Shown here: positions 27,001-46,736 of the stretch, one piece after another
How positions within the stretch are numbered: the first letter of the stretch is position 1
How the letters are laid out: every line of letters starts with the position of its first letter
NCBI GenBank assembly: GCA_051453625.1
Contig: JBOZIK010000001.1
Span: forward strand, 37,706,064 to 37,769,784
From: Welwitschia mirabilis
Taxonomy: Eukaryota
Length of the DNA stretch: 63,721 nt
Direction of reading: 5' to 3'
Program-made: the position numbers and the translations under genes
The notes under the pieces: generated by a model
Told to the model about the DNA's origin: nothing
The model's database searches: none
What the model saw: only the letters and a program-made list of their open reading frames with translations

Positions 27001-27277
27001 TTCATCAGTTAGTCTTCCACTATGTGCCTGTAATAACCAGCCTATTACATCAGTTGAAGCACAACAGGAAGAAGGTGGTTCCCATCAACACGTACAAGAT
27101 CTCATGACTGTAGATTCAATTACTTCATTAGAGAATGGTCTTGACTCTTCTCTCGAGGAGGCAGTTAGCCCCAGTGCACAAAAAGCAAGCTGCTCAAAGA
27201 TATTATTTTGGAGCAGGAAGAACAGCAGTCGAGAAAAATCAGAAGAGCAGCCCTGTAGTACTGAAATTAGTGTGTGA
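3516..27277 (+). CDS. XBAT33: Ankyrin-repeat + C3HC4 RING E3 ubiquitin ligase, XB3/XBAT33 type; 10 exons, 528 aa
   Basis: Exons read by hand, all with GT-AG borders and consistent phase: 3516-3692, 3786-3845, 4517-4588, 4679-4863, 4979-5139, 5270-5328, 5723-5769, 5924-6067, 25907-25998, 26688-27277 (1587 nt). The N-terminus [22 protein letters not shown] matches XBAT33 as I recall it. Ankyrin motifs [56 protein letters not shown]. Confidence 0.93.
8580..10900 (+). mobile_element. Decayed L1-type LINE ORF2 (RT + zf-RVT), intronic
   Basis: Motifs interrupted by stops and frameshifts: NKAPG (~8592), [14 protein letters not shown] (~9085), [12 protein letters not shown] (~9265), KYLGV, WKAKLL..AGR..LI, KGEGGLG, LPTKAYL..CKCC..EHIF, IWKARNK (~10540). 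Confidence 0.85.
10624..10865 (-). mobile_element. Copia-type LTR with 5-bp TSD (solo LTR, or a full element hidden in the 100-N gap)
   Basis: Starts TGTTAG at 10624 and ends CCAACA at 10865. GAAAG flanks both sides (10619-10623, 10866-10870). Both ends resemble the LTR at 22190-22527. Confidence 0.8.
10900..11730 (+). mobile_element. Possible LINE ORF1 relic
   Basis: Weak: WLH(L)PDL-like segment near 10960 and a degenerate zinc-knuckle-like stretch near 11425-11465. Confidence 0.3.
12830..15560 (-). mobile_element. Highly decayed retroelement, probably LINE (related relic at ~23050-23400)
   Basis: Strong purine skew on +. The segment gtagtcaccctattggg (~14673) resembles gttgaccctattgggg (~23158); on the minus strand both read ..PNRV, like the end of a zinc knuckle. 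A diverged ~90-bp repeat flanks the 13410-14057 gap. Confidence 0.3.
15880..16180 (+). mobile_element. Copia gag (UBN2-like) fragment
   Basis: [46 protein letters not shown]. Confidence 0.6.
16240..16730 (-). mobile_element. Copia gag fragment
   Basis: [49 protein letters not shown]. Confidence 0.7.
16735..17143 (-). mobile_element. Probable LTR, adjacent to the gag fragment
   Basis: Inverted termini TGTTAG (16735) and CTAACA(ACA) (17135-17143). No TSD found. Confidence 0.45.
18240..18730 (-). mobile_element. Copia gag fragment
   Basis: [53 protein letters not shown]. Confidence 0.7.
22175..22187 (-). promoter_or_regulatory. Primer-binding site (tRNA-iMet type)
   Basis: Minus strand TAGTATCAGAACC versus canonical TGGTATCAGAGC, 2 nt inside the LTR end. 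Confidence 0.75.
22190..22527 (-). repeat. 5' LTR of the Copia element (~338 bp)
   Basis: TG at 22190 next to the PBS and CAACA ending at 22527; similar ends to the LTR at 10624-10865. Confidence 0.75.
22566..22982. mobile_element. hAT-type MITE, 417 bp
   Basis: 14-bp TIRs TATAGTTAGATGGA / TCCATCTAACCATG (12/14 match). Perfect 8-bp TSD CTTTTCAT (22558-22565, 22983-22990). Subterminal GATC-core repeats at both ends. Confidence 0.9.
24135..25001. mobile_element. Possible old non-autonomous DNA transposon (hAT-like)
   Basis: Imperfect TIRs CAATGTTGTGAGCA / TGCTACAACGATTG, with actc/gagt subterminal repeats. No convincing TSD. Confidence 0.3.
25907..25998 (+). CDS. XBAT33: XBAT33 exon 9 (first half of RING)
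   Basis: caatag|G GAA TGT..: (R)[30 protein letters not shown](G)|gtatc. Phase matches exons 8 and 10. Not shown in frame in the ORF track. Confidence 0.92.
26688..27277 (+). CDS. XBAT33: XBAT33 exon 10 (rest of RING and C-terminus)
   Basis: atacag|GC TGT GGT CAT..: [29 protein letters not shown]. Confidence 0.93.
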
Positions 27278-27591
27278 CTTGTTTCATGGCCCTTGTATCC
27301 CTCACATGGTTTGATGCCACGATTCATATTGTATTCTATGATGTGTTTGTTGAATCTGCATTCAATATTTTTTTGCAAGTTAAATATTTCGGGGGTTCTT
27401 ATAAAGTAGGAGCCATGTTTCCCAGGTTTCAAAGTTGATACCCTTATTGCATGCTTTTGCATTTGTTGCGTATATCAATGAGCAATGGTTGATTCAATTG
27501 ATTATCATCATGAATAATGTATGCAATGCTGTTGCTTGTTTGCTGGTATTAAGTGCTGAAGTTATGTCATATTTAAAAAACATCTTTTTTT

Positions 27592-27769
27592 AGAATTTTT
27601 ATTTTGAGGATAATGGCTGGTAGTTTGATGTGTGTCATACAAACGCCCAATGGCACTTGGGCCTATGCAATCTTTCAAACTACATGCCCCTGCCAATAGG
27701 GTGGTTTGAATTTGGAACCTTGGGTTTAGTATGTCCAAGACTCGACCATTGTGGCGATCGATCTTGAAC
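27592..27769 (-). mobile_element. tRNA-derived SINE, ~180 bp
   Basis: Minus strand has an A-box-like TCGCCACAATGG and a B-box-like AATTCAAACC at tRNA spacing, then an A-rich tail. Flanking direct repeat TAAAAAA(C/A)ATCTTTTTT at 27574-27590 and 27770-27786. Confidence 0.6.
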
Positions 27770-28888
27770 TAAAAAAAATCTTTTTTAATATTATTTTATT
27801 GTCGTCTTCTTCTTCTTTTTTTTTTTTTTTTAAGCCAACTAGACTTTGACTCATTGATGCGACTTTTGGTTTTGAAGTTGTTGAGTTTTTAATTTTGTGG
27901 ACTTTTTAAACACTTGGTGGGTAGACCCATGCTTATAAGTTATGAGCTGTAATGTTTTGGGCTCGACTCTTATAATGTGTAGGTTGGCTTGTACTTTACC
28001 CATGTATTAGGCACACTAGATGTAGCTTCAATGTCTTGGGTACAAAGTATATTGACATTCAAGAATATAAGGCCTCAAATATATGTTAAAATCAGTTTTT
28101 TCCTAATTTGTCATATTTTTATGTATTTAGATTCTAGTTGTTGAGCTTAGGCTTCAATGATGAAAGTTGGTGTTAAACAATTTAATATGTAGTTTATGCA
28201 AAACCTCATTTTCTTGGTTATAGTGAGTTAAAGTGTCATAAAGTTGTAAATTTGATTTTATTAAGGTGGTTATGCAAGCATGATATTGCAAAGTACAATA
28301 GGAAGGTTGTAATATTCTTTTACATGTGATTACAGAGAGGATTTGGTTTTACATAGTATTATGAAGAGGCTTCAGTATTCTTGGTTCTACATGGTACAAT
28401 GGAGAGGCCTCTGGTGTACAATGCTGACGAGAGTGACCCATATATTACCTTATAAGACTTGTNNNNNNNNNNTCCTGGGACAGTGTCACAGACTTTTTTA
28501 ACAAATTATTTTTATATAATAAATAAAAAAATAATTTAAAAATAAAGACCTAATTTTTGAAATAGTGTACCTAATTTATGGGGCTGAGATTCACCTCTAA
28601 AACGACGCCTTGACAAATGCATGCAGTGAAAATGTAACCAACAACATTCAGAACTGGCTCTAAAGAATTCACTCTGAAAAACTGCATTGGAATTAGTAGT
28701 GTACTAAGCNNNNNNNNNNNNNNNNNTAATTGTGATAACCAGGTTTGAAATGCTACTAATTAACATTTTACTTTTGCAATTCTATTATTTTCGAAACACT
28801 TTTACCTTCATTGAAATATTGAGACGAGGGGCAAAAAACTATGGGCTATGAAGTGTCTTTTTTAAAACTTTTTCTCACTCGCCTGGAA

Positions 28889-28952
28889 GCTTCGTCTTGG
28901 GCCGTCTGGAGCTGTCTGGAGCTTCGTCTTGGGCCGTCTGGAGCTGTCTGGA
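28889..28952. repeat. Perfect 32-bp tandem duplication
   Basis: gcttcgtcttgggccgtctggagctgtctgga at 28889-28920 and 28921-28952. Confidence 0.95.
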
Positions 28953-30990
28953 TTACTGTCTACTTTTTGAAACTCAATCTTTCTTGCAAGATCTTTGTTT
29001 GTTGCGAGTCTCATTCTTATGCCTTTATTTCAAAGGCGTTGTAGATTTATGTAGTTGATTCACAATAGATGATTCTTTATTTAACGTCCTTTTCACTAAA
29101 TGATAATTGGATGATTTCAAAACATCATGAAAGCATGAGCCAATCAGAGGATTGAGCAATTAAAACCAAGACCAAGAACTCTGATTTTCTTGGCAATTCT
29201 GTCATTAAAGTCATGCTCGACTTTCTGTGTGTGAGCTGTCGCTTTGGCCACGTCGGCGATCGTTAGAAGGATTAGCGCCGTGAGAGAAAATGCCCAGAAG
29301 ACGTGCTCTGCTATTGCTGGAATTTTGTGGAATGATAAAGTGGTTACGTGTCAGTGTTGAGATGAGCAATGTTTGGCTCGCCATGGCCATGCACACCCTG
29401 AAACAATCGATCCTAATGCGTCTTAACCAACCATTTCTCCCACTACTTCCCTCCCAATTTGTTATTATTCTGTTGAGCCGCCATCATTTGCCCAATTTGC
29501 CTAACACCGTTATATCCAAATGAAATTAAAGAAAAAGAAGTGCGTATGAAGGAAAGAAATGAAAGCAGAAGACGAATATCACGCTGTGCATGACAGAAAC
29601 AAAGCTTTTACAAGTCACCGAAAATGAGACGAATGTACCTTTTGGTGGTTGAGAGCGTTCAAGTGAAAGAGCTTTGAAGTAAATTTAAAAATCTTATTCG
29701 AGAAAATCAGAGTAATTGCTCAAGATATTTATAGATTATGTTGTTATTTAACAGCTTATTATTATATAAAAGAAATTTATATTATAGGTATTATTTTAAA
29801 ATGGTTGAGATATTGCTATTGCTTTTTAAATGATTTGTATTTAATAAAATTCTAAAGAGGATATTTAGTTTTATGGCAAACAAAATGTAGTAAAAACATA
29901 AAACGACATGACCATATTATATTCTCTACTTAATGTGAGCAAACATATATATGATAATCATCTACAGCAATTTATAATTTGACGTGCTACAAGTGTTCAC
30001 CATGGTTGAAAACATTGAAATGGTTGGAGCTGTNNNNNNNNNNNNNNNNNNNNNNNNNNNNNNNNNNNNNNNNNNNNNNNNNNNNNNNNNNNNNNNNNNN
30101 NNNNNNNNNNNNNNNNNNNNNNNNNNNNNNNNNNNNNNNNNNNNNNNNNNNNNNNNNNNNNNNNNNNNNNNNNNNNNNNNNNNNNNNNNNNNNNNNNNNN
30201 NNNNNNNNNNNNNNNNNNNNNNNNNNNNNNNNNNNNNNNNNNNNNNNNNNNNNNNNNNNNNNNNNNNNNNNNNNNNNNNNNNNNNNNNNNNNNNNNNNNN
30301 NNNNNNNNNNNNNNNNNNNNNNNNNNNNNNNNNNNNNNNNNNNNNNNNNNNNNNNNNNNNNNNNNNNNNNNNNNNNNNNNNNNNNNNNNNNNNNNNNNNN
30401 NNNNNNNNNNNNNNNNNNNNNNNNNNNNNNNNNNNNNNNNNNNNNNNNNNNNNNNNNNNNNNNNNNNNNNNNNNNNNNNNNNNNNNNNNNNNNNNNNNNN
30501 NNNNNNNNNNNNNNNNNNNNNNNNNNNNNNNNNNNNNNNNNNNNNNNNNNNNNNNNNNNNNNNNNNNNNNNNNNNNNNNNNNNNNNNNNNNNNNNNNNNN
30601 NNNNNNNNNNNNNNNNNNNNNNNNNNNNNNNNNNNNNNNNNNNNNNNNNNNNNNNNNNNNNNNNNNNNNNNNNNNNNNNNNNNNNNNNNNNNNNNNNNNN
30701 NNNNNNNNNNNNNNNNNNNNNNNNNNNNNNNNNNNNNNNNNNNNNNNNNNNNNNNNNNNNNNNNNNNNNNNNNNNNNNNNNNNNNNNNNNNNNNNNNNNN
30801 NNNNNNNNNNNNNNNNNNNNNNNNNNNNNNNNNNNNNNNNNNNNNNNNNNNNNNNNNNNNNNNNNNNNNNNNNNNNNNNNNNNNNNNNNNNNNNNNNNNN
30901 NNNNNNNNNNNNNNNNNNNNNNNNNNNNNNNNNNNNNNNNNNNNNNNNNNNNNNNNNNNNNNNNNNNNNNNNNNNNNNNNNNNNNNNNNN

Positions 30991-33190
30991 AGATTTAAAA
31001 AATTATTAAGTTTAAATTAGGTTTTTTAAGTTAGGTTTAAATTAGTTTATTTTTAAATTTATTAAGTTTAAATAGTTTATTATTTTGACATTAAGTTTTT
31101 TAACAATAAAGTGTTTTTCAATTAAGTTTATTATTGAGTCAATTGTGATAAAGGAGTTTACATTAAGTTTTTTCAAATTAAGTTTAAAAAATTTTAAAAA
31201 TTACATTTTACTTAAATTAAGTTTAAAAAATTTAAGGTTTTAAGTTTTTTTAAATTGAGTTTAAAAAAATTTAAAAATTTAAGTTTTACTTAAATCAAGT
31301 TTTAAAAATTTAGGTTTTTAATGTTAACTTTTCATATATTATGTTAGAGAAAATTAAGATTATTCTACAATTAAACCTAAATGCTTTTATATTAGATTTT
31401 TTGAAATTAAGTTCTTTTTTAAAATTTAATTTTTCATTACTTTATTTGTTTTTCAAATCATGCTTTTAAAAATTAAGTTCTTCTTAAAGTAAGTTTTTCA
31501 GAAAATTAAGCTTTTTTAACTTTAAAATATTTTTATAAAAATGAGCTTTTTAAATTGTGTCTTTTCTTCTTTCATATAGGTTTTTAACTTAAGTTTTTAA
31601 ATTTTAGTTCACCTTTCAGTTACCTTCATTTTCTAAATGAAGTTTCTATATTCATTTTCATTTATCTAGAATGGATTCTAAGATTAAACACCAACAAGAT
31701 CTAAGTGTTTTAAAGTTAAGTTTTCTTAATTTAAGATTTTTTTAAATTATGTTTTTTTGAAAACGATTTTTCTAAATTAAGGTTTTGTAAATTTACTTTT
31801 ATAAATTAAGTTTTTTGAAATTATAATTTTTTAAATTAAGTGTTCTTAAATTACGTTTTCTTTAAATTATGTTTATTTAAATTAATTTTTTAAAATTAAG
31901 TTTTTTAAAATTAAGTTAAGATTAATGTTAAATTAAGTTTTTTAAATTAAGTTTTTAAATTTAAGCTCTTTAGAATTAAGTTATTGTAAATTAAGTTTTT
32001 TTAATATTTACTAAGATTTAAAAAATTATTAAGTTTAAATTAGGTTTTTTAAGTTAGGTTTAAATTAGTTTATTTTTAAATTTATTAAGTNNNNNNNNNN
32101 NNNNNNNNNNNNNNNNNNNNNNNNNNNNNNNNNNNNNNNNNNNNNNNNNNNNNNNNNNNNNNNNNNNNNNNNNNNNNNNNNNNNNNNNNNNNNNNNNNNN
32201 NNNNNNNNNNNNNNNNNNNNNNNNNNNNNNNNNNNNNNNNNNNNNNNNNNNNNNNNNNNNNNNNNNNNNNNNNNNNNNNNNNNNNNNNNNNNNNNNNNNN
32301 NNNNNNNNNNNNNNNNNNNNNNNNNNNNNNNNNNNNNNNNNNNNNNNNNNNNNNNNNNNNNNNNNNNNNNNNNNNNNNNNNNNNNNNNNNNNNNNNNNNN
32401 NNNNNNNNNNNNNNNNNNNNNNNNNNNNNNNNNNNNNNNNNNNNNNNNNNNNNNNNNNNNNNNNNNNNNNNNNNNNNNNNNNNNNNNNNNNNNNNNNNNN
32501 NNNNNNNNNNNNNNNNNNNNNNNNNNNNNNNNNNNNNNNNNNNNNNNNNNNNNNNNNNNNNNNNNNTTAACAAGTTTATTATTTTGACATTAAGTTTTTT
32601 CACAATAAAGTTTTTTTTTCAATTAAGTTTATTATTGAGTCAATTGTGATAAAGGAGTTTACATTAAGTTTAAAAAATTTAAAAAATTACATTTTACTTA
32701 AATTAAGTTAAAAAAATTTAGGGTTTTAAGTTTTTTTAAATTGAGTTTAAAAAATTTAAAAATTTAAGTTTTACTTTTAAGTTTTAAAAATTTAGGTTTT
32801 TACCATTAACTTTTCATATCTTATGTTAGAGAAAATTAAGATTATTCTATAATTAAACTTAAATGCTTTTATTTTAGATTTTTAAAAATTAAGTTCTTTT
32901 TTAAAATTTAATTTTTCATTACTTTATTTGTTTTTTAAATCATGCTTTTAAAAATTAAGTTCTTCTTAAAGTAAGTTTTTTAGAAAATTAAGCTTTTTTA
33001 ACTTTAAAATATTTTTATAAAATGAGCTTTTTAAATTGTGTCTCTTCTTCTTTCACATAGGTTTTTTAACTTAAGTTTTTAAAAGGTTTTTAAAATTTAG
33101 TTTAGCCTTTCAATTACCTTCATTTTCTAAATGAAGTTTCTACATTCATTTTCATTTATCTAGAATAGATTCTAAGATTAAACACCAACA
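30991..33190. repeat. T-rich aaattaagtttt array with ~1-kb higher-order duplication that includes the RepHel start
   Basis: 30991.. recurs at 32014.., and 31075-31700 recurs at 32573-33190. Each copy carries (atg/ata)gattctaagattaaacaccaacaa (31671 and 33165). Confidence 0.85.
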
Positions 33191-36100
33191 AACTCTAAAT
33201 CGTGAAAGGCAAAGAAGATATCGTGAGAGGCACAGACTTTGTAGGGAAGTTGAAAACTTAGCAAACTTTTTAATCATATGTAATGATATCAATGACGACA
33301 ATAATTCAGAAGGTATGAGTTATTTTTGTTTATAGCTTTACTGCTTTATCAAGACTAGGTTTGTAACATATTTCATTTCTTTTATATGTTCATAAATAAC
33401 ATGAACAATGTAGCTCTTCAACATAATACTTGAATATCTGTTTTTATAGTACAACAATTGATTGACCATACAATATAAGAACTAAATCAACAAATTCAAG
33501 ACATGCCCCTAGAAATAACCCCCTTAGTAGTAGTAAGTGAATAGACAAAAACAATGGTATGACATCTACGAGTCACGTGTCTAATACATAGAGTTCTTTA
33601 TCATCAACAAGAAGACAAGAATATGTAAGGCAACAGAAAGAGATTATGGAAGATGATGGTTATCGTAATCAATTATAACACTTACAGAGAGAAAGACAAA
33701 AAAAACAATCAAATGCAATAGTATTAAACATTAATGCCCTCTCCTCTATAAGAAATCTTGAGCAAACATTACAACAGCCTCTATATACTACCTTTCATAA
33801 ATTTAGTGATGATATATCTAAAGGAATTGAGACATTTTGGAGAGAGATACGAGTATTTACACAACCAAGATCATGCACAATTTGTAATGAGATGCATCAA
33901 TCTATAGAGTTGGTACAAGGCAAACATGACCCCACCCGTAGACGGTGTCAATATGAGAAAAGAGAAGGGATCACAGTTAATGATGAAGAAATTAGACGCT
34001 TCGCTGCTTAGAACGACATCGATCCAGGACCTCAGCCATTTGTTTGATCCTATCTTACACAGGTTAAAGAGATGCTTATTTTAAGGATAAATCCATTGCT
34101 TCAAGTTACACAAGCAATTGGTGGTCAACTAGTATATCGAGGGAACACAATAAGCTTTCCACAAGATGTATCACATATTACAAGGGTCTTGCCTTTTAGA
34201 ATTGCATAACTACCAATCCTTAATCTAAAGAGAAGGAATCAAATTGTCATGGAATATAATTTTATTGTAAGCAAGAGATGAGTTTATCATGCTTTATGCT
34301 TTAAGAAGGAGAATGATCCTTTCTACCAAGATGTTGAGATAGACATGCATGCCTTAGATGACATCAATGATGATGAATATGTTAATGTCTTTCATATGCT
34401 TCCAGACATTACTCTTAATGAAGAGGAAGGGAATATCAAAATACATTTTCATGATCCGATTCTAGAAACAGATGGCTCCAATATCATTCAACACACGTCC
34501 TCGGTTGCCACATGATGTTCTTGACTCGAAAGAAAACTTGATGCTATAAAGAACTGGCTGTAAAACTCGTATAACGATTCCTCAATAAGTTCTCAATGAC
34601 CATTACTATAAGAGTCGCCAATCAATGAGTTTAACACTAGAGGTATGGTATTAATGTCATTTCCATCATTATTTCCTACAGGCAAGTTGTGATATTCTTG
34701 CATGAAGAGCTAAAGATGTCAAACAACATGAGTTTGCAAAGCATCTTTTAAGATACAAAGATGGAAGATTTGGTCATCATCCTTGATTTTGGTAAGTACT
34801 TCTTCATTTGTTTATTTCATTAATGAATTTAATGGGACAATTTATAAACCCTAAAAAAATTGTTTTCTATTTTAGGTATTATATATTCAACATGATTATG
34901 AGACACAGAGCACTTAGATCTACAATAGTGTTTTTCAAAAAGAGCATAGTCGATGCCCCCATTACAATAGAGGAATTATGTGAACAAATGAATAATTATC
35001 CATTAAGTGAAATAATAAACAACTTGATGAGATATAGAAGCTCTCTAAGAGGTACATCGCCTTATTGGAAAAAAAAGTAAATGCAAGTTATTAGATATTG
35101 TTACCCAGCTTGGAACTCCTACAATATTCTTTACTTTAAGCGCTGTAGATTTATATTGGCTTGATCTACATGATATCATGCCTGGTGAACAATTACATCA
35201 TCCATTTGAAGCAAGACAATGGTGATTGCAAAACATCATTAAGAACCTACACATTGTCTTAGAGTACATATATAACTATCACAAAAAATTTAGAGAGATA
35301 ATTCTAATAAAGGAGTTTAATGTTGTAGACTACTAGACACGATTTGAATGGCAAAATAGAGGTTCTCCACATGTACATGGGTTTCTGTGGATAAAAGGAT
35401 CTCCTAACATGGAACTACTTAACTAGAGTGATGATACAACACTAGAAAATGCCAAGAGATTTTTCGTTTCCATTGTGCATGCATGGAATGATATATTTGA
35501 ATAGTATGGCAAAGTAAATGCTGTAAGTAAAAGTTATATCTTCTTTATTACATGCTTAGTTAATTACTATGTTTTAGTCATTATAGTAATCTTTGTTTTT
35601 ATATGCACCAAGAAGAAACATGGATATTGATCCATGTCAATTATAGAAATAGGACCTCAAACATATACAACTAGATCAGGATTATACAACCTTATTAAAT
35701 AGTATTTAAAGACATACAGTTTGTAAACCAGGAACATGTTCGAGGAGCCGAAATGGTTGACAGATGTGCAGGTATCCATAAACTACCACTTTTTTATAAT
35801 TGTAAATATATTCAAACTACAATATTCCATGGCAGCTATAACCTCATGATTCTAGGTTATATATAGATGAAAACAATGAGAAGAAGTATGAGTCGAAGAG
35901 AAATGCTGATAGGTTAACTGTTCATAACAGAATGATTTTACAAACATGGCGAGTGCATATAGACTTCCAACCTATGCTTGATAAATATGTTGTTATACGG
36001 AACATGGCAAAGTATGCCTCAAAGTTAGAGAAGAAATCAAAGTCATATTTTAACACGTTAATGAAGAAAGAGATTCCAATAAGCCTGCCACTTTAGCTTA

Positions 36101-38253
36101 TAAAAATCTAATGATAGATACTATAGCAGGTCATGATATTGAAGCTATAAAAACATGCCACATGATACAAGGAATTCCCTTGGTTAAAAGTAGTAGGGTA
36201 TTTGTACTGCTTAATGTATGTAAGTAGGTATATAAAAAAGTGAAATAAAGCCATGTTGTAGATGAAGAACAAGTGTATACCACATTGGTCGATAAATATT
36301 CAAAAAAGCCACTTCATATGGAAGGCATGTCATTATTTAATTGCGCAAAATATTATGTATTCAATCTAAGGAAAATAGGAGAGGATGCTTGACATCCGAG
36401 AAAGGAATATGCAATTTTCAGAGCTATTTCTAATAGAGATGATGACAAATGGATGGCTTATTGTTGGGCTTAACTAATTCTTCATTATCGATTTAGAGTT
36501 ATCAAACGTGATTTGGGAAGGACAAATAAAGAAATAGAGGCGAAATGGATGTTTGTTGCACATATGTATGAGTAGTGTAATCCATCATATGATTAGGAAT
36601 TAAAACGTGCAATCATCGAGGAGGACCAACATGAAGCCATGGAACCATGACATGTGAATCATTATGAAAATGATTATCAAGTATTAACAAGACATCTACT
36701 AAATAAAGGCCTTCTTCAAAGAAGTGAAAATGACATGCTTGACTTGAGTGATCTTGATAGACATTGTAATTGGTCTGCAAACTATAAAGAAGAAGACTAT
36801 GTAAAATATGTTGTTTCCTTCATGTAAAGTAATAGGACATCAGGTAATTTATTGGTGCAAGATGAAATAAATAAAATAAATGGTGTATCGGGCCTTGGTT
36901 TAAAACAAAGGAAATGCTTTATCATACTCATATCTCATCTGATACTGCAAGAATTCAAGCAAGAAGACATTTAATCTCTACGCATGATAATCCAAGGAAC
37001 GACAGGAACAAGAAAATCTTTTCTTATTCATGCTATAAGAAGTGAATTTAAGAAGATTTATCTAGATAAATAGGTATTATTATGGTGCTTGCACCAACTG
37101 GATTCATTGTGTACAACATCAAGGAAACAATAGTACATTTAGCATTAGGTCTTAAGGTTGGTAACTACGAGTCTGCTTCATCGAGCTAGTTGCTACATCT
37201 TCAAGAACAGCTAAAAATATTAAATGCATCATTTTTTATGACATGAGTTTTATAGGGGACAAAATGTTACTTAATATTGATAAAAGGCTTAAAAAGATAT
37301 TTCCAGCTCATCACCATATGAGCTTTAATGAAAGGTATAACACATTAATAGGTGATCTTACTCAGTTACCTCCAGTGAAGGACTATCCACCATATAATGG
37401 TAGTAAGAAGATGAAGGCATTATAGAGATTATTTGATATAGTTATTGTATTAGATGCAGTCTACAAACAAAAGGGTGATGATCCAAATTAGCAAAGTTTT
37501 AGATATGTATTAATGAATGTAAGAGATGGTAAAGCTTTAAATGATGACTATGAATTTCTAATGATGAGGTCTAAACTTCTTTCCACATCCAAGGGAATAG
37601 ATGATTTCCAAGATTTAATTCATCTATTTGCCATGAATGATATGGTTTCCTCTCATAACTGAAAGTGCTTGCTTCAAATGCAATCATCCATTACATGATG
37701 TTTAGCAGACAAGACACGAGATTTAGTTTAAATACGATGATGCTAACGGTGGATTGGAAACAGAGCTTTTTCTTTGTCAAGGAACTAGAGTCATGTTAAC
37801 TATGAACATATGGCCTGAATTTGGATTAGTAAATGGATCTATGGGTGTTGTTAAATCAATAGTTCATTAGATAAGGAAAAATCCACCTAATCTTTCAACC
37901 TATGTTATGGTTAACTTTGATACCTACAATGGAGTTCCTTTCGATGAATCAAGTCCAAAAATAGTTCATATCATCTCGCTCTCTAGAGATCGATCAAAAC
38001 AACTACTTCTCAAACTTGCTTGGGCATTAACAATTCATAAATCTCAGGGAATAATCCTAAGTAAAGCATGGATAGACATTTGTCCCAAGGAAATATCAGG
38101 ATTAACTTTTGTGGCTCTATCTCGAGTGAAGTTAATAAAATCATTGAAAATATTACATCCCTTCTCTAAACAGAGATATAGAAAATTATCCAAGGGTTCT
38201 AACTTGGAGAAGTAATTAAAGAAGAGTAATGTTTAACAAGCTTGGAAGTCTAA
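33165..38253 (+). pseudogene. RepHel transposase (HUH Rep + Pif1-like helicase), intron-containing, many stops and frameshifts
   Basis: NDIDPGPQP..LTQVKEMLI..GGQLVYRGNTISFPQD; FPSLFPTG; GRFGHHP; LRGTSPYW; PTIFFTLSAVDLYW; DY*TRFEWQNRGSPHVHGFLW (35328-35390); WR..IDFQP..AKYASK. Helicase: GTTGTRKS, LAPTG, DMSFIG, GDLTQLPPV, GLVNGSMG, AWALTIHKSQG, FVALSRV. Ends LEV*. Confidence 0.92.
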
Positions 38254-38865
38254 AATACATTGTCTTTCTAATAATTTGCTAATTCATTTATGGTGTACAT
38301 TTGTATCAAATGATATAAAATGAATTATTATTAATTTTTTATAATTAAACTTTACTAATTTATCTATGCTACATGTCTGTATTATTATTTATTACCTTCA
38401 TTGTAATACTTAAATGCCTATATTGTTCTCTATTAGCTTTATTGTAATAAAGTGTTAGTTGATCTTTCTATAAACTTTATGAGCACTTCCTTTCCTATAT
38501 TATTATCTTTTTCACTTCATGATTTTTACATTTAAATATAGAAAAGAGATATCATTAGATACTTAAATCATTACTAATTATTTCTAATATTAAGATTATA
38601 TGTTTAAATCACATGTGTGGTAATAATGATTATAAATACAAATGAAAGCATGTGCATAAAGGCCTTTCTAATTAAAGCAATTATGACTCGTGAAATTGAT
38701 TCCATAAAAGACGCAATAATCAGGGGCAGATGACCACTAGCTTAAATATATATTCCATATACATTNNNNNNNNNNNNNNNNNNNNNNNNNNNNNNNNNNN
38801 NNNNNNNNNNNNNNNNNNNNNNNNNNNNNNNNNNNNNNNNNNNNNNNNNNNNNNNNNNNNNNNNN

Positions 38866-39569
38866 ATGATCCAAATCAGCAAAGGTTTAGAAATGTATTA
38901 ACGAATGTAAAATATGGTAAAGCTTTAGATGATGATTATGAATTTCTAATGATGAGGTCTGAACTTCCTTCCACATCCAATAGAATGAATGGTTTTGAAG
39001 ATTCAGTTCATCTATTCACCATGAATGGTATGGTTTACTCTCATAATAGAAAGTGCTTACTTCAAATGCAATTACTCATTGCATGATGTGTAGTAGACAA
39101 GATACAAGATTCAATTAGATATGATGATGTTGATGGTGAATTGGAAACAGAGCTTCTTCTTTATCAAGGAGCTTAGTTTATCAGCCAAGAAAGAATCCAC
39201 TTGATCTTCCAACCTATGTCATGGTTGACTTTAAAACCTACACTAAGGTTCCTTTCAATGAATCAAGTTCAAAAATAGTTCCTATAATCCCGTTTTCTAG
39301 AGATTGATTAAAACAACTACCTCTCAAACTCACTTAGACATTATCAATTCATAAATCTTAGGGGATAACCCTTAGTAATACATGTATAGGCATTAGTCCT
39401 AAGGAAATGCCAGGATTGACTTTTGTGACCCTTCTTTTGAGTGAAGTCAATAGAATCATTGAAGATCTTACATCCCTTCTCTAAACAGAGATATAGAAAA
39501 TTATCCAAGGGTTCTAACTTGGAAAAGCAGATTCAAGAAGAGCAATGTTTAGCAAGCTTAGAAGTCTGA
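38866..39569 (+). pseudogene. Second, diverged copy of the helicase C-terminal part
   Basis: Aligns with 37478-38253 at roughly 85-90% by eye and lacks the VMLTMN..GLVNGSMG segment (deletion near 39173). Its downstream region 39570-40105 matches 38254-38765. Confidence 0.9.
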
Positions 39570-40079
39570 AACACATAGTCTTTGTAATAATTTTCTAGTT
39601 CATTTGTTATGTATATTTGTATCAAATAATATAAAATGAATTATTATTTATTTCTTACAATTAAATATTACTAATTTATTTATTCTAGATGCTTGTATTG
39701 TTATTTGTTACCTTTGTTGTAATACTTAAATGCATTTATTGTTCTTTATTAGCTTCATTATAAAAAAATGATAATTGACCTCTTTATAAACTATATGAAC
39801 ACTTTCTTTCCTACGTTATTATCTTTTTCATTTCATGCATTTTGACATTTAAATATAGAAAAGAGATATCATTAGATACTTAACTCATTACCAATTATTT
39901 CCGACATTGAGATTATTTGTTTAAATCACAAGATTAGTAATAATGATTACAAATAAAAATGAAGGCATGTCTATAAAGGTCTTTCTAATTAAAGTAATTA
40001 TGACTCATGAAATTGATTCTATAAAAGACTTAATAATTATTGCACTTATAACTAATAATAATCAATCGTAGATGATCAC

Positions 40080-40443
40080 TAGCGTAGTTATATATTTCAT
40101 ATAGATGGAATATTTGGTCGAGAGATGTCAATTTCTACTACCTTTCAAGGGTACAAGAATTAACCTAACTGCATTTCTGAGAATGAGGCATTGCCTTTTG
40201 ATGAATGGTCAACCTTGACCATACGATCAAAGTCAACGTTAATAGAAGTCAAAGTCAACTTTGAGTGTGGTTAAAGTCAACACCAATGTGTAGGTAAAAC
40301 ATGGTTAGGTTAATGCTTGTGCCCTCATCCAATAGGCAGTAGAAATGCAGTTACGTTAATGCTTGTTCCCCTATCCGAAAGGCAGTAGAAATTGATATCT
40401 ATTGGTCAAATATTCGATGTATATGAAATATATATCTAAGCTA
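40080..40443. repeat. Foldback A: ~95-bp imperfect inverted arms around a ~165-bp spacer
   Basis: tagcgtagttatatatttcatatagatggaatatttgg..aactgcatttct pairs with agaaatgcagtt..aatattcgatgtatatgaaatatatatctaagcta. Confidence 0.9.
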
Positions 40444-40444
40444 T

Positions 40445-41728
40445 TATGCTCAACGCAGATGGTATTAGGTAACACAAGTAGGCTAGACATTATTGTACAA
40501 GAGTTTTATGTTCAATGTAGATGGTATTAGGTGGTTCGTGTTGCCCATATATTACCACACAAAAGTTGTATATTAGTGTAGATGACCTTAGGTGACACAA
40601 GTAACCCATACATTACCATAGAAGGGTTGTATGTTTAGTACAGATAGTGTTACCTATGGATGGTATTAGGTGACACAAGTGGCTCATGCATTACATAAAG
40701 ACTTGTATGCTTAGTGTAGATGGTATTAGGTGACCCAAGTGGCTTATGCATTACATGGAAGACTTTTATGCTCAGTGTAAGTGGTATTAGGTAATACCCG
40801 TGGCCCACACATTATCATACCCAACTTGTATTAGCTAATATAAGTGGCCCATACATTGTCATACAAGACTTATATGCTCAGTGCAGATGGCATTACCCAT
40901 GGATGGGTGAAATAAGTGGTTGATATATTTCCATACAAAAGTGCACATGGTGTTACCTGTAGATGTTATTAAGTGATACACATCTCTCATGCATTACCAT
41001 ACAAGGCTTCAAAAGCTAATATGGTGTTACCCACTAGTATTAGGTGATACAAGTGACCCATACATTACAAGGCAAGAATGCAAATAAGATTACCCATAGA
41101 TGATATTAGACGACACAACTGACCCATGCATTACCATAAACGAATGTAGATGATAGTAGGCGCAAATGGTGTTAGGTGACACAAGTGGCCCATATATTAC
41201 TATACCATAGAAGACTTGGGTACTTACTGCACATGTATTATGTGACACAACTACATATGACACAAGTGGTCCATACCATATATGATACGTATGCTTGGTG
41301 CAAATGGCGTAAGGTAACACATGTGACATAAGTGGGCCATATGACATATGTACAAATGACATTAAGTGCCAAGTGGTCCATACATTACCATACAAGACTT
41401 GCATGCTTAGTGCAAATGGTACTAGGTTATATTAAAGTGGCTCATACAACAAAAGTGCAAATGACATTAGGTGATACGCGAGTGCTGCATATGACATAAA
41501 TGCAAATGGTATTAGGTGATACAACACACGATGCAAGTGCAAATGCTATTAGGTAACACAAGTGGCCCATACATTACCATACAAGACTTGTATGTGGCCC
41601 ATATGACACGAATGCAAATGGTATTCGACCACATATGTGACACACACGACCCAAATGTATATGGTATTAGGTGTTACAAATGGCCCATACATAACCATAC
41701 AAGACTCGTATGCTTAATGCAAATGGTA
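40445..41728. repeat. ~60-bp satellite array, degenerate
   Basis: Approximate consensus gtagatggtattaggtgacacaagtggcccatacattaccatacaagacttgtatgcttagt. Separated partial monomers lie at 28431-28462 and 44621-44670. Confidence 0.92.
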
Positions 41729-41774
41729 CTAGCTTAGATATACAATACATATATATATATTTAAAAGTTGGCCA

Positions 41775-41884
41775 AGATTTATCAATTTTTTTCACCTTTC
41801 GGACGAGGCTACGAGCATTAAGGCAAATATATTTGCCTTAATACTTGTAGCCTCGTCTGAAAGGCGAAAAAATTTGATAAATCT
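41775..41884. repeat. Foldback B: loop-less 110-bp palindrome
   Basis: Two 55-bp arms centred on 41829/41830; 50/55 identical to the reverse complement, no indels. Confidence 0.95.
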
Positions 41885-42629
41885 ATCTAAACTAGTGGTC
41901 ACCAGCCACTGATTAATAATAGTTATAAGTTCAATATTAAACTATAATACAAAAGATAGGTAAACAACATCAACAAAAATATTCATTTCAATGCTTCAAA
42001 AACATAAAGTTTAACAATTTTTACACACTACAAGTTTGTATCCAATCCAAAAATATTAGATCTTTAACAAATTCAAAGGCATCAAAAGTAAGCTCTTAAA
42101 ACTTCTTAACAAGTAAATTTTCTATTTTCCACATAAGGCATATCCATGTGCATAAATATTATTAAAAACAAAACCTTTAATTTTTATTTTCTAAACTACT
42201 TTTTTACACACACATTTTGAAACATTCTTCTAAACCTTCTCCATCCTAAAATGGCCTTAATGCTTACTTTATAATCAAACTCTTTAATCTAACCTTTNNN
42301 NNNNNNNNNNNNNNNNNNNNNNNNNNNNNNNNNNNNNNNNNNNNNNNNNNNNNNNNNNNNNNNNNNNNNNNNNNNNNNNNNNNNNNNNNNNNNNNNNNNN
42401 NNNNNNNNNNNNNNNNNNNNNNNNNNNNNNNNNNNNNNNNNNNNNNNNNNNNNNNNNNNNNNNNNNNNNNNNNNNNNNNNNNNNNNNNNNNNNNNNNNNN
42501 NNNNNNNNNNNNNNNNNNNNNNNNNNNNNNNNNNNNNNNNNNNNNNNNNNNNNNNNNNNNNNNNNNNNNNNNNNNNNNNNNNNNNNNNNNNNNNNNNNNN
42601 NNNNNNNNNNNNNNNNNNNNNNNACCTTC

Positions 42630-43145
42630 TCCATCCTAAAATGGCCTTAATGCTTACTCTATAATCAAACTCTTTAATCTAACCTTTTTTAAGATTATCT
42701 CATACTTATTACAACCAATATTTCATTTTATATGTGAAAATCACATTGTTAATTTAGTTTTAAAGAAAAACTTATGAAACTATTTGTTAGTTAGTTTAAT
42801 TAATTTATAGTTGTTAACTTGCAGGTATCAACTTAGGCTAAAAGAGTTCTTCTAAATGTTACAAACATTATCAAACATGTGGAGTTTCAAGGTAGTGTCT
42901 CTTGCACAATGTCTTGGATCTAAAGAGAAAAATATCAATGACATAACTTTGTCAAATTATAGATGTTATAGACGATGGGACCTCCTCTTCTTTATGCAAA
43001 AACTACCTTGGCTTCCAACTTAGCCCCTACCTTTGCAAATCAATTTAATAGTTGTTTTCAAGAGAAACTTTTATTTACCTTAGCCAAAAAATGTTTTATG
43101 GTACTTGGTGTGCAATAGCCCTTGAAAATTATTAACACCCTTACA
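42630..43145 (-). pseudogene. Possible decayed OTU-family cysteine protease fragment
   Basis: KGVNN/frameshift/RAIAHQV (43142-43102) resembles the OTU motif GDxNCxFRA(I/L)AxQ. Weaker GGPI..SYVIDIF and H(Y)KAI-like segments follow. Confidence 0.35.
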
Positions 43146-44227
43146 ACATATTTTTATTTACAACTCTTAGATTTTGACTTTCTAATACCTTTGCTTTTAG
43201 GATGGTCTTTAAGTTATTAACACTACTCTTTATTAGAAACACTACAACTTTCTAGATATACAATAAGTAGAGGGAGTGTTGAACTTCAAATGATATTACC
43301 TTTTAAATAAATGATTTAACTACATCACAGCCTTTTAAAAGTATGTTAAACATTAACAATTTAAACCCAGAACCACTTCTTATATGACTAATTCAACTAT
43401 CATCCTAGACATATAATAATTTATTCATCATTATTTATGTTTTTTTTAGCTGCTGTGGTGTCTTTGATTCGTTCAGAGCCATGATTAAAGGCTATGAAGA
43501 GTCAAAAGTGTAGGAGTGTTTGTGGACAGTAGATAGCCCATAGTGCTCTCTTTTGACAAATAAATGAATATGTATTATCATTTTCAAAGATCCTCTCATA
43601 ATAATTCATTTGACACTATTTATTTGTAGTTTGTTATTACTGGATGCTTCCATATCAGTATTAAGTTAACTTCTTTATGTTTTGCTTAATGTTAATTTTC
43701 TCTTCTGCCAGATGCAATATAATAAAAACTTCTACAGAACTCCAGCTTCATGGAGTAACCTGTTATTTATTGCCCTCTTTTAACCGTATCTGAACGTATT
43801 CCACCCATATACTATAGATTCTCCACTGGCGGAGATCATATTATTGCTTCCAATGAATTCACAGCTTATTTTAAGCAAATTACAAATACTTAAAAATCTG
43901 AGTGGCATTTTGCCGAGTCCAATCATTTATCTCTGCCCTTTTCTTGGAAAATAAGGAGTGCTTCTCTCATCTCATCCATCTAACTCAAATGCAAATGAGA
44001 TCAACAATAAGAGGTGGACAATCTCAAAATATTGCTAAAATGTGTTATATCACTTTACCCATACAATGTGTCATTAGCGAGAGATGCAGATTAAGTTAGA
44101 GAAGGTCCAAAATTTCTGTGAGTTGAATAAAGAAGGCAGATGGTGATTGGATGAGAAGCGGAAGCCACACTGATGAAGATGGAAGTGTGGAAATTTGAAA
44201 TGCAGGCATGAATGGCCAGGAATACCA

Positions 44228-44402
44228 AACGCTCCTGCTGAAACCCCGAAACACTCTTGTAGATGCCGAAACGCTCCTGAAAATGCCGAAAACATTCCTG
44301 AAAATGCCGAAATGCTCCTGAAAACGCTGGGAACGGTCCTGAAACGCTCCTCTGAAACGCCCCTCTGAAAACACCCCTCTGAAATGCTCCTCCTGAAGCG
44401 CT
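44228..44402. repeat. Cluster of short gaaacgctcct / gaaa(a)tgcc repeats
   Basis: More than ten imperfect 9-13-bp units near the 5' end of the non-autonomous element. Confidence 0.8.
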
Positions 44403-46736
44403 CACACCCAATTAAAAAAATAGGAGCATAACTAGTACAATGAAACTAGTACAAAAAAATAGGAGCATAACTAGTGCTTTCTTTAGCAGGAAATGCTACA
44501 TCTCTAGCAGGAAACGTGGAGTCTCTGGCAGGAAACACGGTGTTTGCAGTATTCAATTTTAGAATTTGGAGTAACGCCATCCCGGATAATTCAGTGACTA
44601 GGGATGGCCTCTTAGCCAAATTAAGTGACACAAGTGACTCATACATTACTATACAAGACATGTATGCCTAGGTTATCGGGCCTACAAGTAGTGCTATTAA
44701 ATTTGGTAGCATGCTCGCTATTCCTTGGACCTTCGACTCTAATTAGTTCTAATACTTGGACTTTATAACTGCTCATATAATCTATATGCTATAAAAAATC
44801 CCTTAAAAATTATTTTGATGAATTTACAGATTCAATGGCTACAATAAACTCAAGTTAGAGCCACTAGGTCAGTAAGATATCAAACAAGAAAATTTATCAT
44901 GTATAGAAGGGACTTGGCCAATAGAAAATCAAAATCATTCATGCATGAAAGTAATTGTGAAATCAAACATTTAACAGAAGAAAACATAACCATTCATAGA
45001 CCTGACATAAATTATTAAATTCATGTAATCTCAAAAACAAGAAACACATATTGAAACTAAATATGAAACTTTGGCATATTGTAGTGTAATAATAACTTCT
45101 TTGGGTTGAAGAGTCTCATGAAGCCTCATTTAATTTAAGAACAATTTACTATAAAACTTGGATTTATCTTTAAATGCATCCTCGATTATTTGCACTATTA
45201 ACTTTAAGTTAATACCATCTTATTTAAATTATTATTTGATTACTTTTAAACTCGTTTTCACCTTTTTCACCACCATCCTTATAAATCATTATTTATTACT
45301 TTTTTGCCCTTTTTCATTGTGTATTTTGTTTTTGTAAATCAAAACATAATTTCTTAACATAAGAATTTCTTATTTCTGTTATTATAATTACTACTTATTC
45401 TTAAATTAAAGAATTATTAATGTATGTTTTGACTCTTCAAATAAATTTTGTTTTTTTAATTGAAAGACTTTTTCAAGAATTAAACTCACAACCTTAAAGA
45501 CACGAGAGCACTACTCTATTGTTAGGACGTCTCTTTAGAGATAAATAAAACTTTTTTTCAATAATATAGATTTTAAAATAAGACCTATAATTTTATGTCC
45601 TCTCAACAATTCCTATAATTTTATGTCCTCTCAACAATTCCTTATAAATTTTACCTTCTCCAACATAGACATAAGTCCATTATTTTTTGTTCATTATCTT
45701 CTTTGACTTGATTTTCCAGATCCTGAGTTATAATCAATGGCTACAAAGACCAAGGCAAAAAATTTAAGTTCATTTCCTTCTTTTACTTAACATGGAAGCC
45801 AAGGATTCTAGAATTCCAAAGTAGAATTGTCTAGGCATGACAATGCCAAATAAACTGCTCAGCCAAGATCTTGCAAGCTTGTCTTTATCACTAAACATGA
45901 TAACTCCTTCTTTCTGCTTCAAGACTATAAACTAAGCACATCACTATGATCTTGAAAATGACAAGGAAGCTATTAACCCCTCGAAAGAGATGGAATATCA
46001 AGTAGCTTTCATTCTTAAAGAAATGATTTTAAGTGCTATACCTTCAAAAATGAGAAAGAAGCAACTAAGCACTTAGAAGACAGGGCAATGTGAAGTAGCT
46101 TTCATTTCTAATAGATAATTTGTTTCACAAAACGTTCATGGCCCCACAGATTTCAAAAGGTTTCAAATTGTGAAGAATACTCCTTATATTTGCAATAATG
46201 GTTTTGTGTTACTTCATTGACTACTAGAAATATATATCCTATTTACTTCTGTCCTCATTAATGTGAACGAAGTAAATCACGTCCATTTCCAAAGTCAACA
46301 CCAACATACAACTGCTATTTGGATTTTTTTGAAAAGACAATCAATATTAAGAATATTTGTGATCAAGATATGTAAAATCTACTTAAAACTAACAATTCTA
46401 TTATTACTAATATATTAACCATCATAAATTCTAATTTCACATAAGTAACCTAATAGAATAATGATATCATAAACAACGAAATAAGAAGCATATGTATGGT
46501 AAGAATTTGTGTTAACTCATCTATAATACTAGTAATGCCCTTCTCCACTTTTACTTTCCACGTTTCACACTCCTATCATGTCTACAAATGAAGGAAGCTA
46601 CTGAACTATACCAAACTGTACATAGAAAGACCAAACTTCAACCCTAAATCAACATCCCCCACTACCCTTTTAACGACAGACGTTAAAATTCCAGGAAATC
46701 TTAACATCCCCGTTTAGCCCCTCTTAACGGCAAACG

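Follow-up and report, generated by a model that had tools for sequence, protein, structure and literature searches.

Organization of the locus

The window, a 63,721-nucleotide stretch of Welwitschia mirabilis DNA whose coordinates are used throughout, contains an array of ~60-bp satellite units interrupted by two insertions. The array, defined by TRF, alignment and a satellite-probe search, occupies 40445–41728, between the 3' ends of both inserts, and all 16 probe matches lie within 40445–41732 or 44620–44671. Remnants of the satellite are found at the outer borders: the left remnant (28432–28462) ends in AAGACTTGT and is identical to the unit at 41560–41590 at 27 of 31 positions, and the right remnant (44621–44671) is 78–87% identical to array units. 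Neither 300 shuffles nor 300 random window pieces produced a score as high as that of the 31 nt upstream of 28463 against the satellite. The inserts lie tail-to-tail, the large one (e1) on the forward strand and the other (e2) on the reverse strand, and an earlier sequence-only reading that described two tail-to-tail insertions in a single ~60-bp satellite was correct on both counts.

There are 17 runs of N in the window, five of them inside the large insertion (28463–40444). A 10-N gap (28463–28472) sits exactly at its 5' junction, which is therefore unobserved, and a second (38766–38865) falls exactly between two sequences, copies A and B, described below. The 326-N gap within e2 (42298–42623) is flanked by 64-bp direct copies (42234–42297 and 42624–42687) that are 98% identical; these probably represent contig ends that overlap, and the true length of e2 may be ~0.4 kb below the assembled one.

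Coding and non-coding copies

Copy A (28473–38765, forward strand) is a full-length, decayed HLE2 element that has lost its 5' terminus to the gap. AT-rich repeats and gaps make up the ~5.5 kb upstream of the coding region, where a Pfam search of five ORFs returned no families. The coding region is a RepHel pseudogene (34018–38212, forward strand) with a DUF6570 domain (34018–34686), a Rep domain extending to ~36063 and a PIF1 helicase extending to 38212. Residues 1–1295 of the Cryptomeria protein P0005 align by tblastn in eight colinear pieces, in frames 1, 2, 3, 1, 3, 2, 1 and 2, over 4.2 kb uninterrupted by a gap. Six translated pieces contain 26 in-frame stops, there are at least seven frame changes, and the gene is long dead; the term 'autonomous', previously applied to this element, does not fit it.

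The domain content is that of an HLE2 protein, as had been proposed. DUF6570 (PF20209), upstream of Rep, scores 60 bits (E 4.4e-16; cut-off 24.3), Helitron_like_N (PF14214) is found at E 1.1e-13 and Pif1_2B at E 6.3e-5; Rep and PIF1 helicase are fused, in a gene that is decayed. Rep motif 2 reads RGSPHVH (35358–35378), and FEWQNRGSPHVHG is the sole match in the six-frame translation of the window; it agrees with the HLE2 pattern ExQxRGSPHxH, with S between G and P. According to the available text of PMC4067079, S at this position is diagnostic of Helentrons and L of Helitrons, and DUF6570 is treated as an HLE2 marker, used by HELIANO, in that of PMC11417382. The pseudogene has no endonuclease domain; only 505 nt separate the helicase end (38212) from the 3' block (38717), which leaves no room for one, and Exo_endo_phos is absent among the 120 relatives listed. 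The C-terminal AP endonuclease of Helentrons sensu stricto is thus lacking.

Copy B (38866–40444, forward strand) is a 5'-truncated tandem copy that begins inside the helicase, covers residues 1054–1307 of Cryptomeria P0005 by tblastn, and continues to the 3' terminus. Positions 37478–38720 of A and 38866–40037 of B share 85% identity across 1.17 kb, in head-to-tail order. Taken as one element in the sequence-only reading (28462–40444), the large insertion is, judging from this alignment and the separate CACTAG block of the first copy, two tandem copies. Either bypass of the first 3' end or a duplication of the 3' part in tandem would best account for the arrangement, the A/B junction itself lying in the gap.

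The second insert, e2 (41729–44620, reverse strand), is a non-coding element of 2,892 bp as assembled that starts TT(T)GGC and ends ...AAGCTAG. Its longest ORF matches no family in a Pfam search, and TRF finds internal tandem repeats with periods of 13–41 bp near its 5' end (44227–44403, reverse strand). Homology of e2 to copies A and B is limited to the 3' ~230 nt. Since the termini are only ~70–75% identical, e2 and A/B are subfamilies rather than a proven autonomous/non-autonomous pair.

The 3' ends: a conserved block and a long palindrome

All copies share a subterminal block of the pattern TAATCA-N-CACTAG followed directly by a palindrome, which begins at the CTAG of the block. Pattern search and alignment place the block at 38717–38740 in copy A (forward strand; TAATCA...GACCACTAG), 40059–40082 in copy B (forward strand; TAATCA...GATCACTAG) and 41892–41915 in e2 (reverse strand; TAATCA...GACCACTAG); these are three matches in the window where 0.14 are expected. 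The inserts share ~65 nt ending GA(C/T)CACTAG at 75% identity, together with their last ~100 nt, and coding and non-coding copies of what is a rolling-circle (Helitron-like) family thus have 3' terminal sequence in common; the shared block and the foldback beyond it had both been recognized previously.

The palindrome of e2 (41729–41895, reverse strand) is 167 nt long and runs from the subterminal CTAG to a terminal CTAG, with 55-nt inner arms that are 91% complementary. It folds at -51.3 kcal/mol (z -12.8), and none of 200 shuffles folds as well. That of copy B (40079–40444, forward strand) is 366 nt long, from the subterminal CTAG to a terminal CTAT; it contains a 46-bp tandem duplication (40304–40392, TRF), its outer 60-nt arms are complementary at 50 of 60 positions, and its fold (-81.9 kcal/mol, z -10.5) is matched by none of 100 shuffles. 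For copy A only the start of the left arm is present (38737–38765, forward strand), cut by the gap at 38766–38865, and 38738–38764 is 92.6% complementary to 40417–40443 of copy B. The terminal 14-mer has six matches against 0.87 expected, five of which are hairpin feet.

A related metagenome contig, L001, has the same organization, with the block at 6086–6112 and a CTAG...CTAG palindrome at 6108–6257 (hairpin z -13.4), and the block/palindrome junction is identical in all four copies, including this one from another source. The distance from block to end is ~165 nt in e2, ~365 nt in copy B and ~150 nt in L001. Homology of the three complete 3' ends stops past AAGCTA(G/T)T, and all three flanks differ. 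The 3' end of the family is a conserved ~25–65-nt block ending (G/C)(A/C)(C/T)CACTAG plus a 150–366-nt palindrome closing on the last bases. The z-scores are in keeping with an HLE2 stem-loop, of a length far exceeding those described. The outer stems of e2 and L001 differ by one clear compensatory change (A:T to T:A). Selection on hairpin structure is only suggested, because self-complementarity (83–92%) is in modest excess of the identity of arms between elements (69–83% of aligned positions).

The previously noted CTAG-3' end is present in two of the three complete ends, copy B having CTAT. The palindrome opens with the subterminal CTAG and closes with the terminal one, so the latter is not a CTRR of the HLE1 style lying ~11 nt past a short hairpin.

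The 5' end and inverted repeats

Only e2 has a visible 5' terminus, that of copy A falling in the gap and that of L001 off the contig. In a tentative 5' terminal hairpin of e2 (44563–44620, reverse strand), the candidate 5' inverted repeat is enclosed by an 8-bp stem (GCCATCCC/GGGATGGC), with a further, outer stem starting from the first bases; for this single end the fold is -13.0 kcal/mol (z -2.7), and one of 200 shuffles is as good. Asymmetric inverted repeats, which the sequence-only reading had also proposed, do not stand out: 272 of 1000 shuffles score at least as high as the best candidate pair in e2 (AGTCACTGAATTA / AGCCACTG-ATTA), and 85 of 500 as high as the L001 candidate. The 5' similarity reported between the large insert and e2 (tcctgggac... 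and tccgggatgg...) exists in the sequence at chance level, the best local score between the two 5' regions being reached by 759 of 1000 shuffles.

Insertion sites

Excision of the inserts restores the satellite phase at both sites (GACTTGT + ATGCTC for the large insert, GGTA + TTAAG for e2), and a TSD is absent at both. The reported rebuilding of the satellite thus stands for the phase, although at the large insert the 5' junction itself is the 10-N gap. All three copies are located in the satellite array of ~1.37 kb, with no target-site duplication evident.

A T flanks each insert on both sides, and each rebuilt satellite site has a single T; T directly follows all three complete 3' ends. The A^T target of the sequence-only reading applies to one of the two sites, the other being G^T in the same parse. 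Because a T borders the inserts at either end, T^A is an equally good parse for both sites, in which case the element end is CTA(G/T)T.

Relatives and phylogenetic position

The RepHel of L001 shares 73% identity with Cryptomeria P0005 and ~40–50% with that of the window. Eleven related metagenome loci were scanned for downstream hairpins, and L001 alone has this architecture. In a tree of DUF6570-type relatives only, the window joins L001 and three Cryptomeria proteins in one group (SH-aLRT 95). This group nests in a clade of 19 rows (SH-aLRT 100) made up of Cryptomeria proteins, Gb_ gene models and metagenome loci, separate from the fungal and animal rows. Placement relative to HLE1 rests on the two diagnostic features, RGSPH and DUF6570, rather than on the tree. 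By these comparisons the window element appears to be an HLE2 member in the Cryptomeria/Gb_-model clade, structurally distinct by its long 3' hairpin. The region most likely holds three old, inactive copies of one HLE2-clade Helitron-like family of the Helitron2 type (RepHel with DUF6570, no AP endonuclease).

Comparison with described Helitron-like elements

The closest likeness is to Helitron2 and canonical HLE2 elements (Bao & Jurka 2013, PMC3627910; Li et al. 2024, PMC11417382), which in the available text have an RGSPH and DUF6570 RepHel without endonuclease, a 3' hairpin directly past conserved subterminal sequence, a 5' hairpin (here tentative, in e2 only), a 5' end beginning with T, no TSD and non-coding relatives that share their termini. 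[quoted passage not shown] The 3'-ATIR of Helitron2 lies ~20–30 bp from the 3' end (PMC3627910), whereas the window family has a 150–366-nt hairpin closing on its last base. For the HLE2 T-T target the sites are equivocal, T standing on both sides of both inserts but only once at each reconstructed site.

Helentrons and HINE/DINE-1 elements, as described in the available text of PMC4067079, share the conserved subterminal sequence with a 3' palindrome and the association with repetitive DNA, and non-coding HINE/DINE-1 derivatives have internal tandem repeats comparable to those of e2. Helentrons differ in their C-terminal AP endonuclease, TT insertion, demonstrable subTIRs of 12–15 bp and, in mites, palindromes of just 5–10 bp. 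Canonical Helitrons (HLE1) resemble the family as rolling-circle RepHel elements with a CTAG 3' end, no TSD and T after the 3' end. They have RGLPH rather than RGSPH, lack DUF6570, start 5'-TC where e2 has TT, and carry a 16–20-nt hairpin ~11 nt before CTRR (in the available text of PMC4067079) instead of a palindrome closing on the terminus; a CTRR end occurs here in two of three ends and A^T at one of two sites, in one parse.

The sequence-only reading suggested a possibly undescribed plant lineage; a 2024 paper reports HLE2 elements from land plants (available text of PMC11417382). HelenSM92 of Sphagnum magellanicum is one such element, and by its description in that text differs in having short terminal inverted repeats, TT/TT insertion sites and a captured GIY-YIG domain.

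Alternative explanations

The combination that the sequence-only reading did not recognize, an HLE2 protein without endonuclease together with 5'-TT, CTAG-3', A^T and no TSD, has already been published for proto-Helentron-Pi from Phytophthora infestans (Thomas et al. 2014, PMC4067079; PMC11417382; available text of both). Our family could accordingly be a hybrid lineage, a land-plant counterpart of proto-Helentron in which an HLE2 protein is combined with HLE1-like termini and targeting (CTRR end, A^T): the protein agrees, e2 can be read as 5'-TTTGG...CTAG-3' flanked by A and T, 5'-TT is seen at the one 5' end available, CTAG at two of three 3' ends with T after all three, and neither of two sites has a TSD. 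We consider this reading unlikely. The A^T target is not established, since the other site parses as G^T and T^A fits both equally well; the terminal CTAG mirrors a subterminal CTAG at the palindrome foot, unlike the HLE1 layout; and only one 5' end is usable, with no empty sites. Moreover, proto-Helentron, re-described as HelenPi572, has a 5' stem-loop located 3.6 kb upstream of its left repeat (available text of PMC11417382), whereas the large stem-loop here is 3'-terminal and follows the sense-strand ORF. The SET and TIR domains of proto-Helentron are also absent here, and its host is an oomycete.

The gaps at the 5' junction and between A and B, and the nearly identical flanks of the e2 gap, typical of unmerged contig ends, raise the question of whether unlinked contigs were scaffolded into the 12-kb insertion, in which case neither the junction at 28462 nor the A/B tandem would be biological. 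This is improbable, as the satellite resumes right of 40444 exactly in the phase that it has on the left side of the gap (a ~1-in-60 chance, by our reckoning, for unlinked sequences), the RepHel pieces are colinear, and A and B differ by 15% and so are not one sequence assembled twice. It is more improbable still, indeed barely credible, that the palindromes lie outside the element, as foldback or MITE-like sequences inserted independently beside the Helitron ends. Their length is unusual for HLE2, where a 3'-ATIR ~20–30 bp from the 3' end in Helitron2 (PMC3627910) and, in mite Helentron-type elements, subTIRs ~38–60 bp from it (PMC4067079; available text of both) are described, but the block/palindrome junction is constant in four of four copies, palindromes of different copies are homologous to each other, and the flank begins right after the palindrome in all three complete copies.

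A proposed model for 3' end recognition

Modelled on knowledge of Helraiser and the Helitron2 proposal, transposition of this family would start with RepHel nicking the 5' end of the element and unwinding it 5' to 3'. The long palindrome would snap back on the displaced single strand, putting the terminal CTAG opposite the subterminal CTAG, beside the conserved block, and CTAG/CTAG pairing would mark the cut site for the second tyrosine; the strand would then be circularised and integrated beside a T. What is unusual about these decayed copies is the very long hairpin, closing precisely at the element's 3' terminus.

Two insertions in a satellite array

A satellite with units of ~60 bp occupies 40445-41728 of the window, a stretch of draft plant scaffold that is itself interrupted by 17 N runs, and the array is broken twice by foreign DNA, at 28463-40444 and at 41729-44620. 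All 16 of the 16 satellite-probe matches (TRF and probe search) lie in 40445-41732 or 44620-44671, and the 31 nt preceding 28463 also resemble the satellite (27/31, a score reached by 0/300 shuffles and 0/300 random pieces of the window). Excision of each insertion rebuilds the satellite phase, as GACTTGT + ATGCTC at the larger, rightwards-oriented insertion (e1) and as GGTA + TTAAG at the smaller, non-coding insertion on the - strand (e2), so the coordinates and the two tail-to-tail insertions in a single satellite recognized in the sequence-only reading both hold. A 10-N assembly gap (28463-28472) sits at the 5' junction of e1, and for this reason neither that junction nor the 5' terminus of e1 is seen.

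Each insertion lies close to one outer edge of the ~1.37-kb array, at a distance of only 31 nt (28432-28462) and 51 nt (44621-44671), and both have the 5' end facing out. By our own arithmetic two random insertions would fall so near the array edges roughly 2 times in 1000, and one way to account for this is that the middle of the array expanded afterwards. We also considered that the satellite and both insertions form the interior of a larger element, and rejected this since neither outer flank resembles the other or any remaining part of the window. Within e2, 64-bp direct copies that are 98% identical (42234-42297 and 42624-42687) stand on both sides of a 326-N gap; they are probably unmerged contig ends, and e2 is therefore likely ~0.4 kb shorter than assembled. 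Part of e2 is present in 13 of the 18 sequencing runs listed, with a best share of 0.33.

The neighborhood includes exons of an XB3/XBAT31-type E3 ligase at 3465-4891 and 26660-27274 (+), which code for ankyrin repeats and a RING_XB3-XBAT31 domain (E 2.3e-13) and extend over about 24 kb with huge introns; a copia-type gag_pre-integrase fragment (20479-20877, -) lies between them, and the transposon cluster begins some 1.2 kb past the last exon. Immediately left of the satellite remnant, 28200-28431 appears by eye to contain a different ~30-bp repeat with tacatggtacaatggagaggc-like units, and TRF, run on 27000-46500, reported no array there. Further right, the block at 47895-49395 is open over long frames (120-172 aa) in either strand and, judged by eye on its translations, looks rich in GC, in AT-rich surroundings.

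The large insertion contains two copies

The 12-kb block was initially taken for a single insertion, and is instead a full-length copy A (28473-38765) followed head-to-tail by a 5'-truncated copy B (38866-40444), because 37478-38720 and 38866-40037 are 85% identical and each has its own 3' block. That of copy A (38717-38740) ends GACCACTAG and leads into the first 29 bases of a hairpin and then a 100-N gap (38766-38865), in which the junction of the two copies is hidden. The visible start of copy B is inside the helicase (residues 1054-1307 of P0005, a Cryptomeria japonica relative), and it is to copy B that the 3' end abutting the satellite at 40444 belongs.

The tandem pair may reflect bypass of the first 3' end, tandem duplication of the 3' portion, or a second insertion. 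The left arm of the copy A hairpin (38738-38764) is complementary to the terminal right arm of copy B (40417-40443) at 25/27 positions, and the left arm of copy B pairs with its own right arm at about 23/27 by our count; this would fit copy B having arisen inside the hairpin of copy A, at a difference too small to interpret.

A decayed Helitron2-type RepHel gene

Copy A carries a pseudogene for RepHel, a fused Rep and PIF1 helicase protein, at 34018-38212 (+), colinear with P0005 residues 1-1295 in eight pieces in alternating frames; 26 stop codons fall within the six pieces that were translated. When the stops are written as X, these pieces score for DUF6570 (60 bits, E 4.4e-16), Helitron_like_N (E 1.1e-13) and the Pif1 2B domain (E 6.3e-5). 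Rep motif 2 is FEWQNRGSPHVHG, the single match in the six-frame translation of the window. The S between G and P is described as diagnostic of the Helentron type, Helitrons having L (Thomas et al. 2014, PMC4067079), and DUF6570 is described as a marker of HLE2, the Helentron/Helitron2 clade (Li et al. 2024, PMC11417382). An AP endonuclease domain is absent from all 120 relatives listed, and there is no space for one here between the end of the helicase (38212) and the start of the 3' block (38717). Given the S of the Rep motif, DUF6570 and the lack of room for an endonuclease, the predicted protein is HLE2, of the Helitron2 type, an assignment made by diagnostic features rather than by a tree with labelled HLE1 (canonical Helitron) members. 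The HLE2 protein proposed from the sequence is thus borne out; the description of the element as autonomous is true only historically, because its RepHel gene is long dead.

The named relatives among the 120 rows listed come solely from Cryptomeria japonica (12 rows) and from EukProt Gb_ gene models (6 rows), labelled "uncharacterized"; the next-best matches among these rows are fungal and animal proteins with no more than 37% identity. A quick LG+G4 tree of 36 rows places the window sequence in a clade of 19 (SH-aLRT 100) with the plant rows and seven metagenome loci, where it groups with three Cryptomeria proteins and L001 (SH-aLRT 95). Judged by these relatives and by the XB3/XBAT31-type gene of about 24 kb upstream, the element probably resides in a gymnosperm. 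L001, a metagenome contig, carries the closest of 80 loci obtained by scanning metagenome contigs with the plant-protein alignment; its RepHel is decayed, with a protein that shares 73% identity with P0005 and 40-50% with that of the window.

[quoted passage not shown] The pattern TAATCA-N(6-18)-CACTAG has three matches in the window, against 0.14 expected, at copy A, copy B and e2, and in each the palindrome begins at the CTAG of the block. The copy B palindrome (40079-40444, +) is 366 nt long with a predicted folding energy of -81.9 kcal/mol (z -10.5), and that of e2 (41729-41895, -) is 167 nt long at -51.3 kcal/mol (z -12.8). Both close on the final bases of the element, ...TATATCTAAGCTAT in copy B and ...TATATCTAAGCTAG in e2, and the terminal 14-mer is matched six times in the window (0.87 expected), five of them at the feet of these hairpins. 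The shared block pointed out in the sequence-only reading is present at all three copies, and the long foldback at copy B and e2, with its start visible in copy A. In the right half of the copy B palindrome a 46-bp unit is repeated in tandem (40304-40392; 1.9 copies, 86%; TRF), which accounts in part for this hairpin being twice as long as the others.

L001 has the same layout, with the block at 6086-6112, about 300 nt 3' of the coding region, and a 150-nt palindrome running from CTAG (6109) to CTAG (6257) with 63-nt arms that are 89% complementary (z -13.4). It is alone in this among the 11 related loci scanned downstream of the ORF, and a pattern scan of the metagenome contigs gave 0 matches to the conserved 3' terminal pattern. 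The three complete 3' ends (copy B, e2 and L001) align through AAGCTA(G/T)T and then pass into three unrelated flanks. The outer stems of e2 and L001 differ by one compensating A:T to T:A pair change, and arm self-complementarity is 83-92%, compared with a between-element arm identity of 69-83% of aligned positions; this excess fits maintenance of a predicted structure, but is not strong proof of it. A formal compensatory count between the e1 and e2 hairpins was set aside, with 31 of 51 mapped positions inconsistent through indels.

The element had been described as ending in CTAG-3'. A terminal CTAG is present in e2 and in L001, but one window end, that of copy B, reads CTAT, and the resemblance to the HLE1 layout fails: the terminal CTAG mirrors the subterminal CTAG and is not an HLE1-style CTRR a few bases past a short hairpin.

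5' ends and target sites

The 5' end is visible in e2 only, where it begins TT(T)GGCTAAGAGGCC and has a predicted hairpin with an 8-bp stem (GCCATCCC/GGGATGGC; z -2.7, with 1/200 shuffles folding as well), which would fit the 5' hairpin described for Helitron2 (Bao & Jurka 2013, PMC3627910). Two other 5' features put forward earlier fare less well. A 17-base similarity between the 5' sequences of e1 and e2 is present, but its score is matched by 759/1000 shuffles, and the best candidate for an asymmetric TIR in e2 is reached by 272/1000; the best asymmetric inverted repeat in L001 is likewise no better than chance (85/500 shuffles). At L001 6258-6300, TT... comes right after the 3' CTAG, followed by TAAGAGGCC and a CCCTA..CAC-like run in common with the e2 5' end. 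This flank could be the 5' end of a head-to-tail neighboring copy, a lead only, as the likeness to e2 is not significant (74/1000 shuffles reach its score) and the TAAGAGGCC motif is present in only 2 of the 80 loci.

Both insertions have a T on each side, and the rebuilt satellite site has one T. Accordingly e2 can be parsed equally well as TTTGG...CTAG at A^T or TTGG...CTAGT at T^A, and the large insertion equally well as ...CTAT at G^T or ...CTATT at T^A. The A^T target originally suggested is not favored over T^A, which parses equally well at both sites; the reported lack of a TSD agrees with what is seen at these two sites.

Comparison with published elements

Canonical HLE2 elements are described as having short terminal inverted repeats, a stem-loop after the right repeat, and T-T insertion (PMC11417382), Helitron2 as having a 3' repeat ~20-30 bp from the end plus a 5' hairpin (PMC3627910), and mite Helentrons as having subTIRs 38-60 bp from the 3' end (PMC4067079). 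The combination of features not recognized in the sequence-only reading is already in print as proto-Helentron-Pi, for which PMC4067079 describes an HLE2 protein without an endonuclease, 5'-TT and 3'-CTAG ends, A^T insertion and no TSD. PMC11417382 later gives this element a stem-loop at its 5' end, a long way upstream of the left repeat, and reports that 404 other genomes yielded no proto-Helentron. The same source reports HLE2 in 6 of 8 sampled land-plant classes and 13 of 74 species, taking Sphagnum as its detailed case, and our search of the available literature found no paper tying Helentrons to gymnosperms in this sense. Compared by published descriptions, the window family is a new structural variant and a member of the known HLE2 clade, and elements like it may already be among the reported land-plant HLE2. 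The picture of Helitron classification is unchanged, with the hybrid idea either published (proto-Helentron) or unsupported here, and the window family adds structure to a thin record of land-plant HLE2 elements.

A possible role for the terminal hairpin

The anatomy of these elements is conserved in two distant family members and has a sharp 3' boundary, and from it we infer every enzymatic step of the following scheme. RepHel would nick the 5' end and unwind the strand, and the long palindrome of the displaced strand would snap back, so that the terminal CTAG pairs with the subterminal CTAG beside the conserved block; a second cut would fall at the foot of the hairpin, and the strand would be circularized and inserted beside a T, without a TSD. 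It is possible, and we put it forward only tentatively and as rather doubtful, that there is a seed-plant HLE2 sub-lineage in which the conserved block and a palindrome of 150-366 nt, bounded at each end by the self-complementary CTAG, supplant the usual short 3' stem-loop and short inverted repeats. Its transposase would cut where the folded hairpin closes, and the resulting 5'-TT...CTAG-3' ends would resemble those of proto-Helentron in oomycetes.

The proposals for HLE2 end recognition described in PMC4067079, PMC11417382 and PMC3627910 are all sequence-based. A strongly conserved block abutting a palindrome that closes on the presumptive cut site is a concrete and testable substrate, and two elements with a protein identity of only about 45% retain this layout. 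If the proposal is true, Helitron-like CTAG ends would arise within HLE2 by hairpin geometry and not by ancestry in common with HLE1, and these elements would provide a defined DNA substrate with which recognition of the 3' end by HLE2 transposases could be tested.
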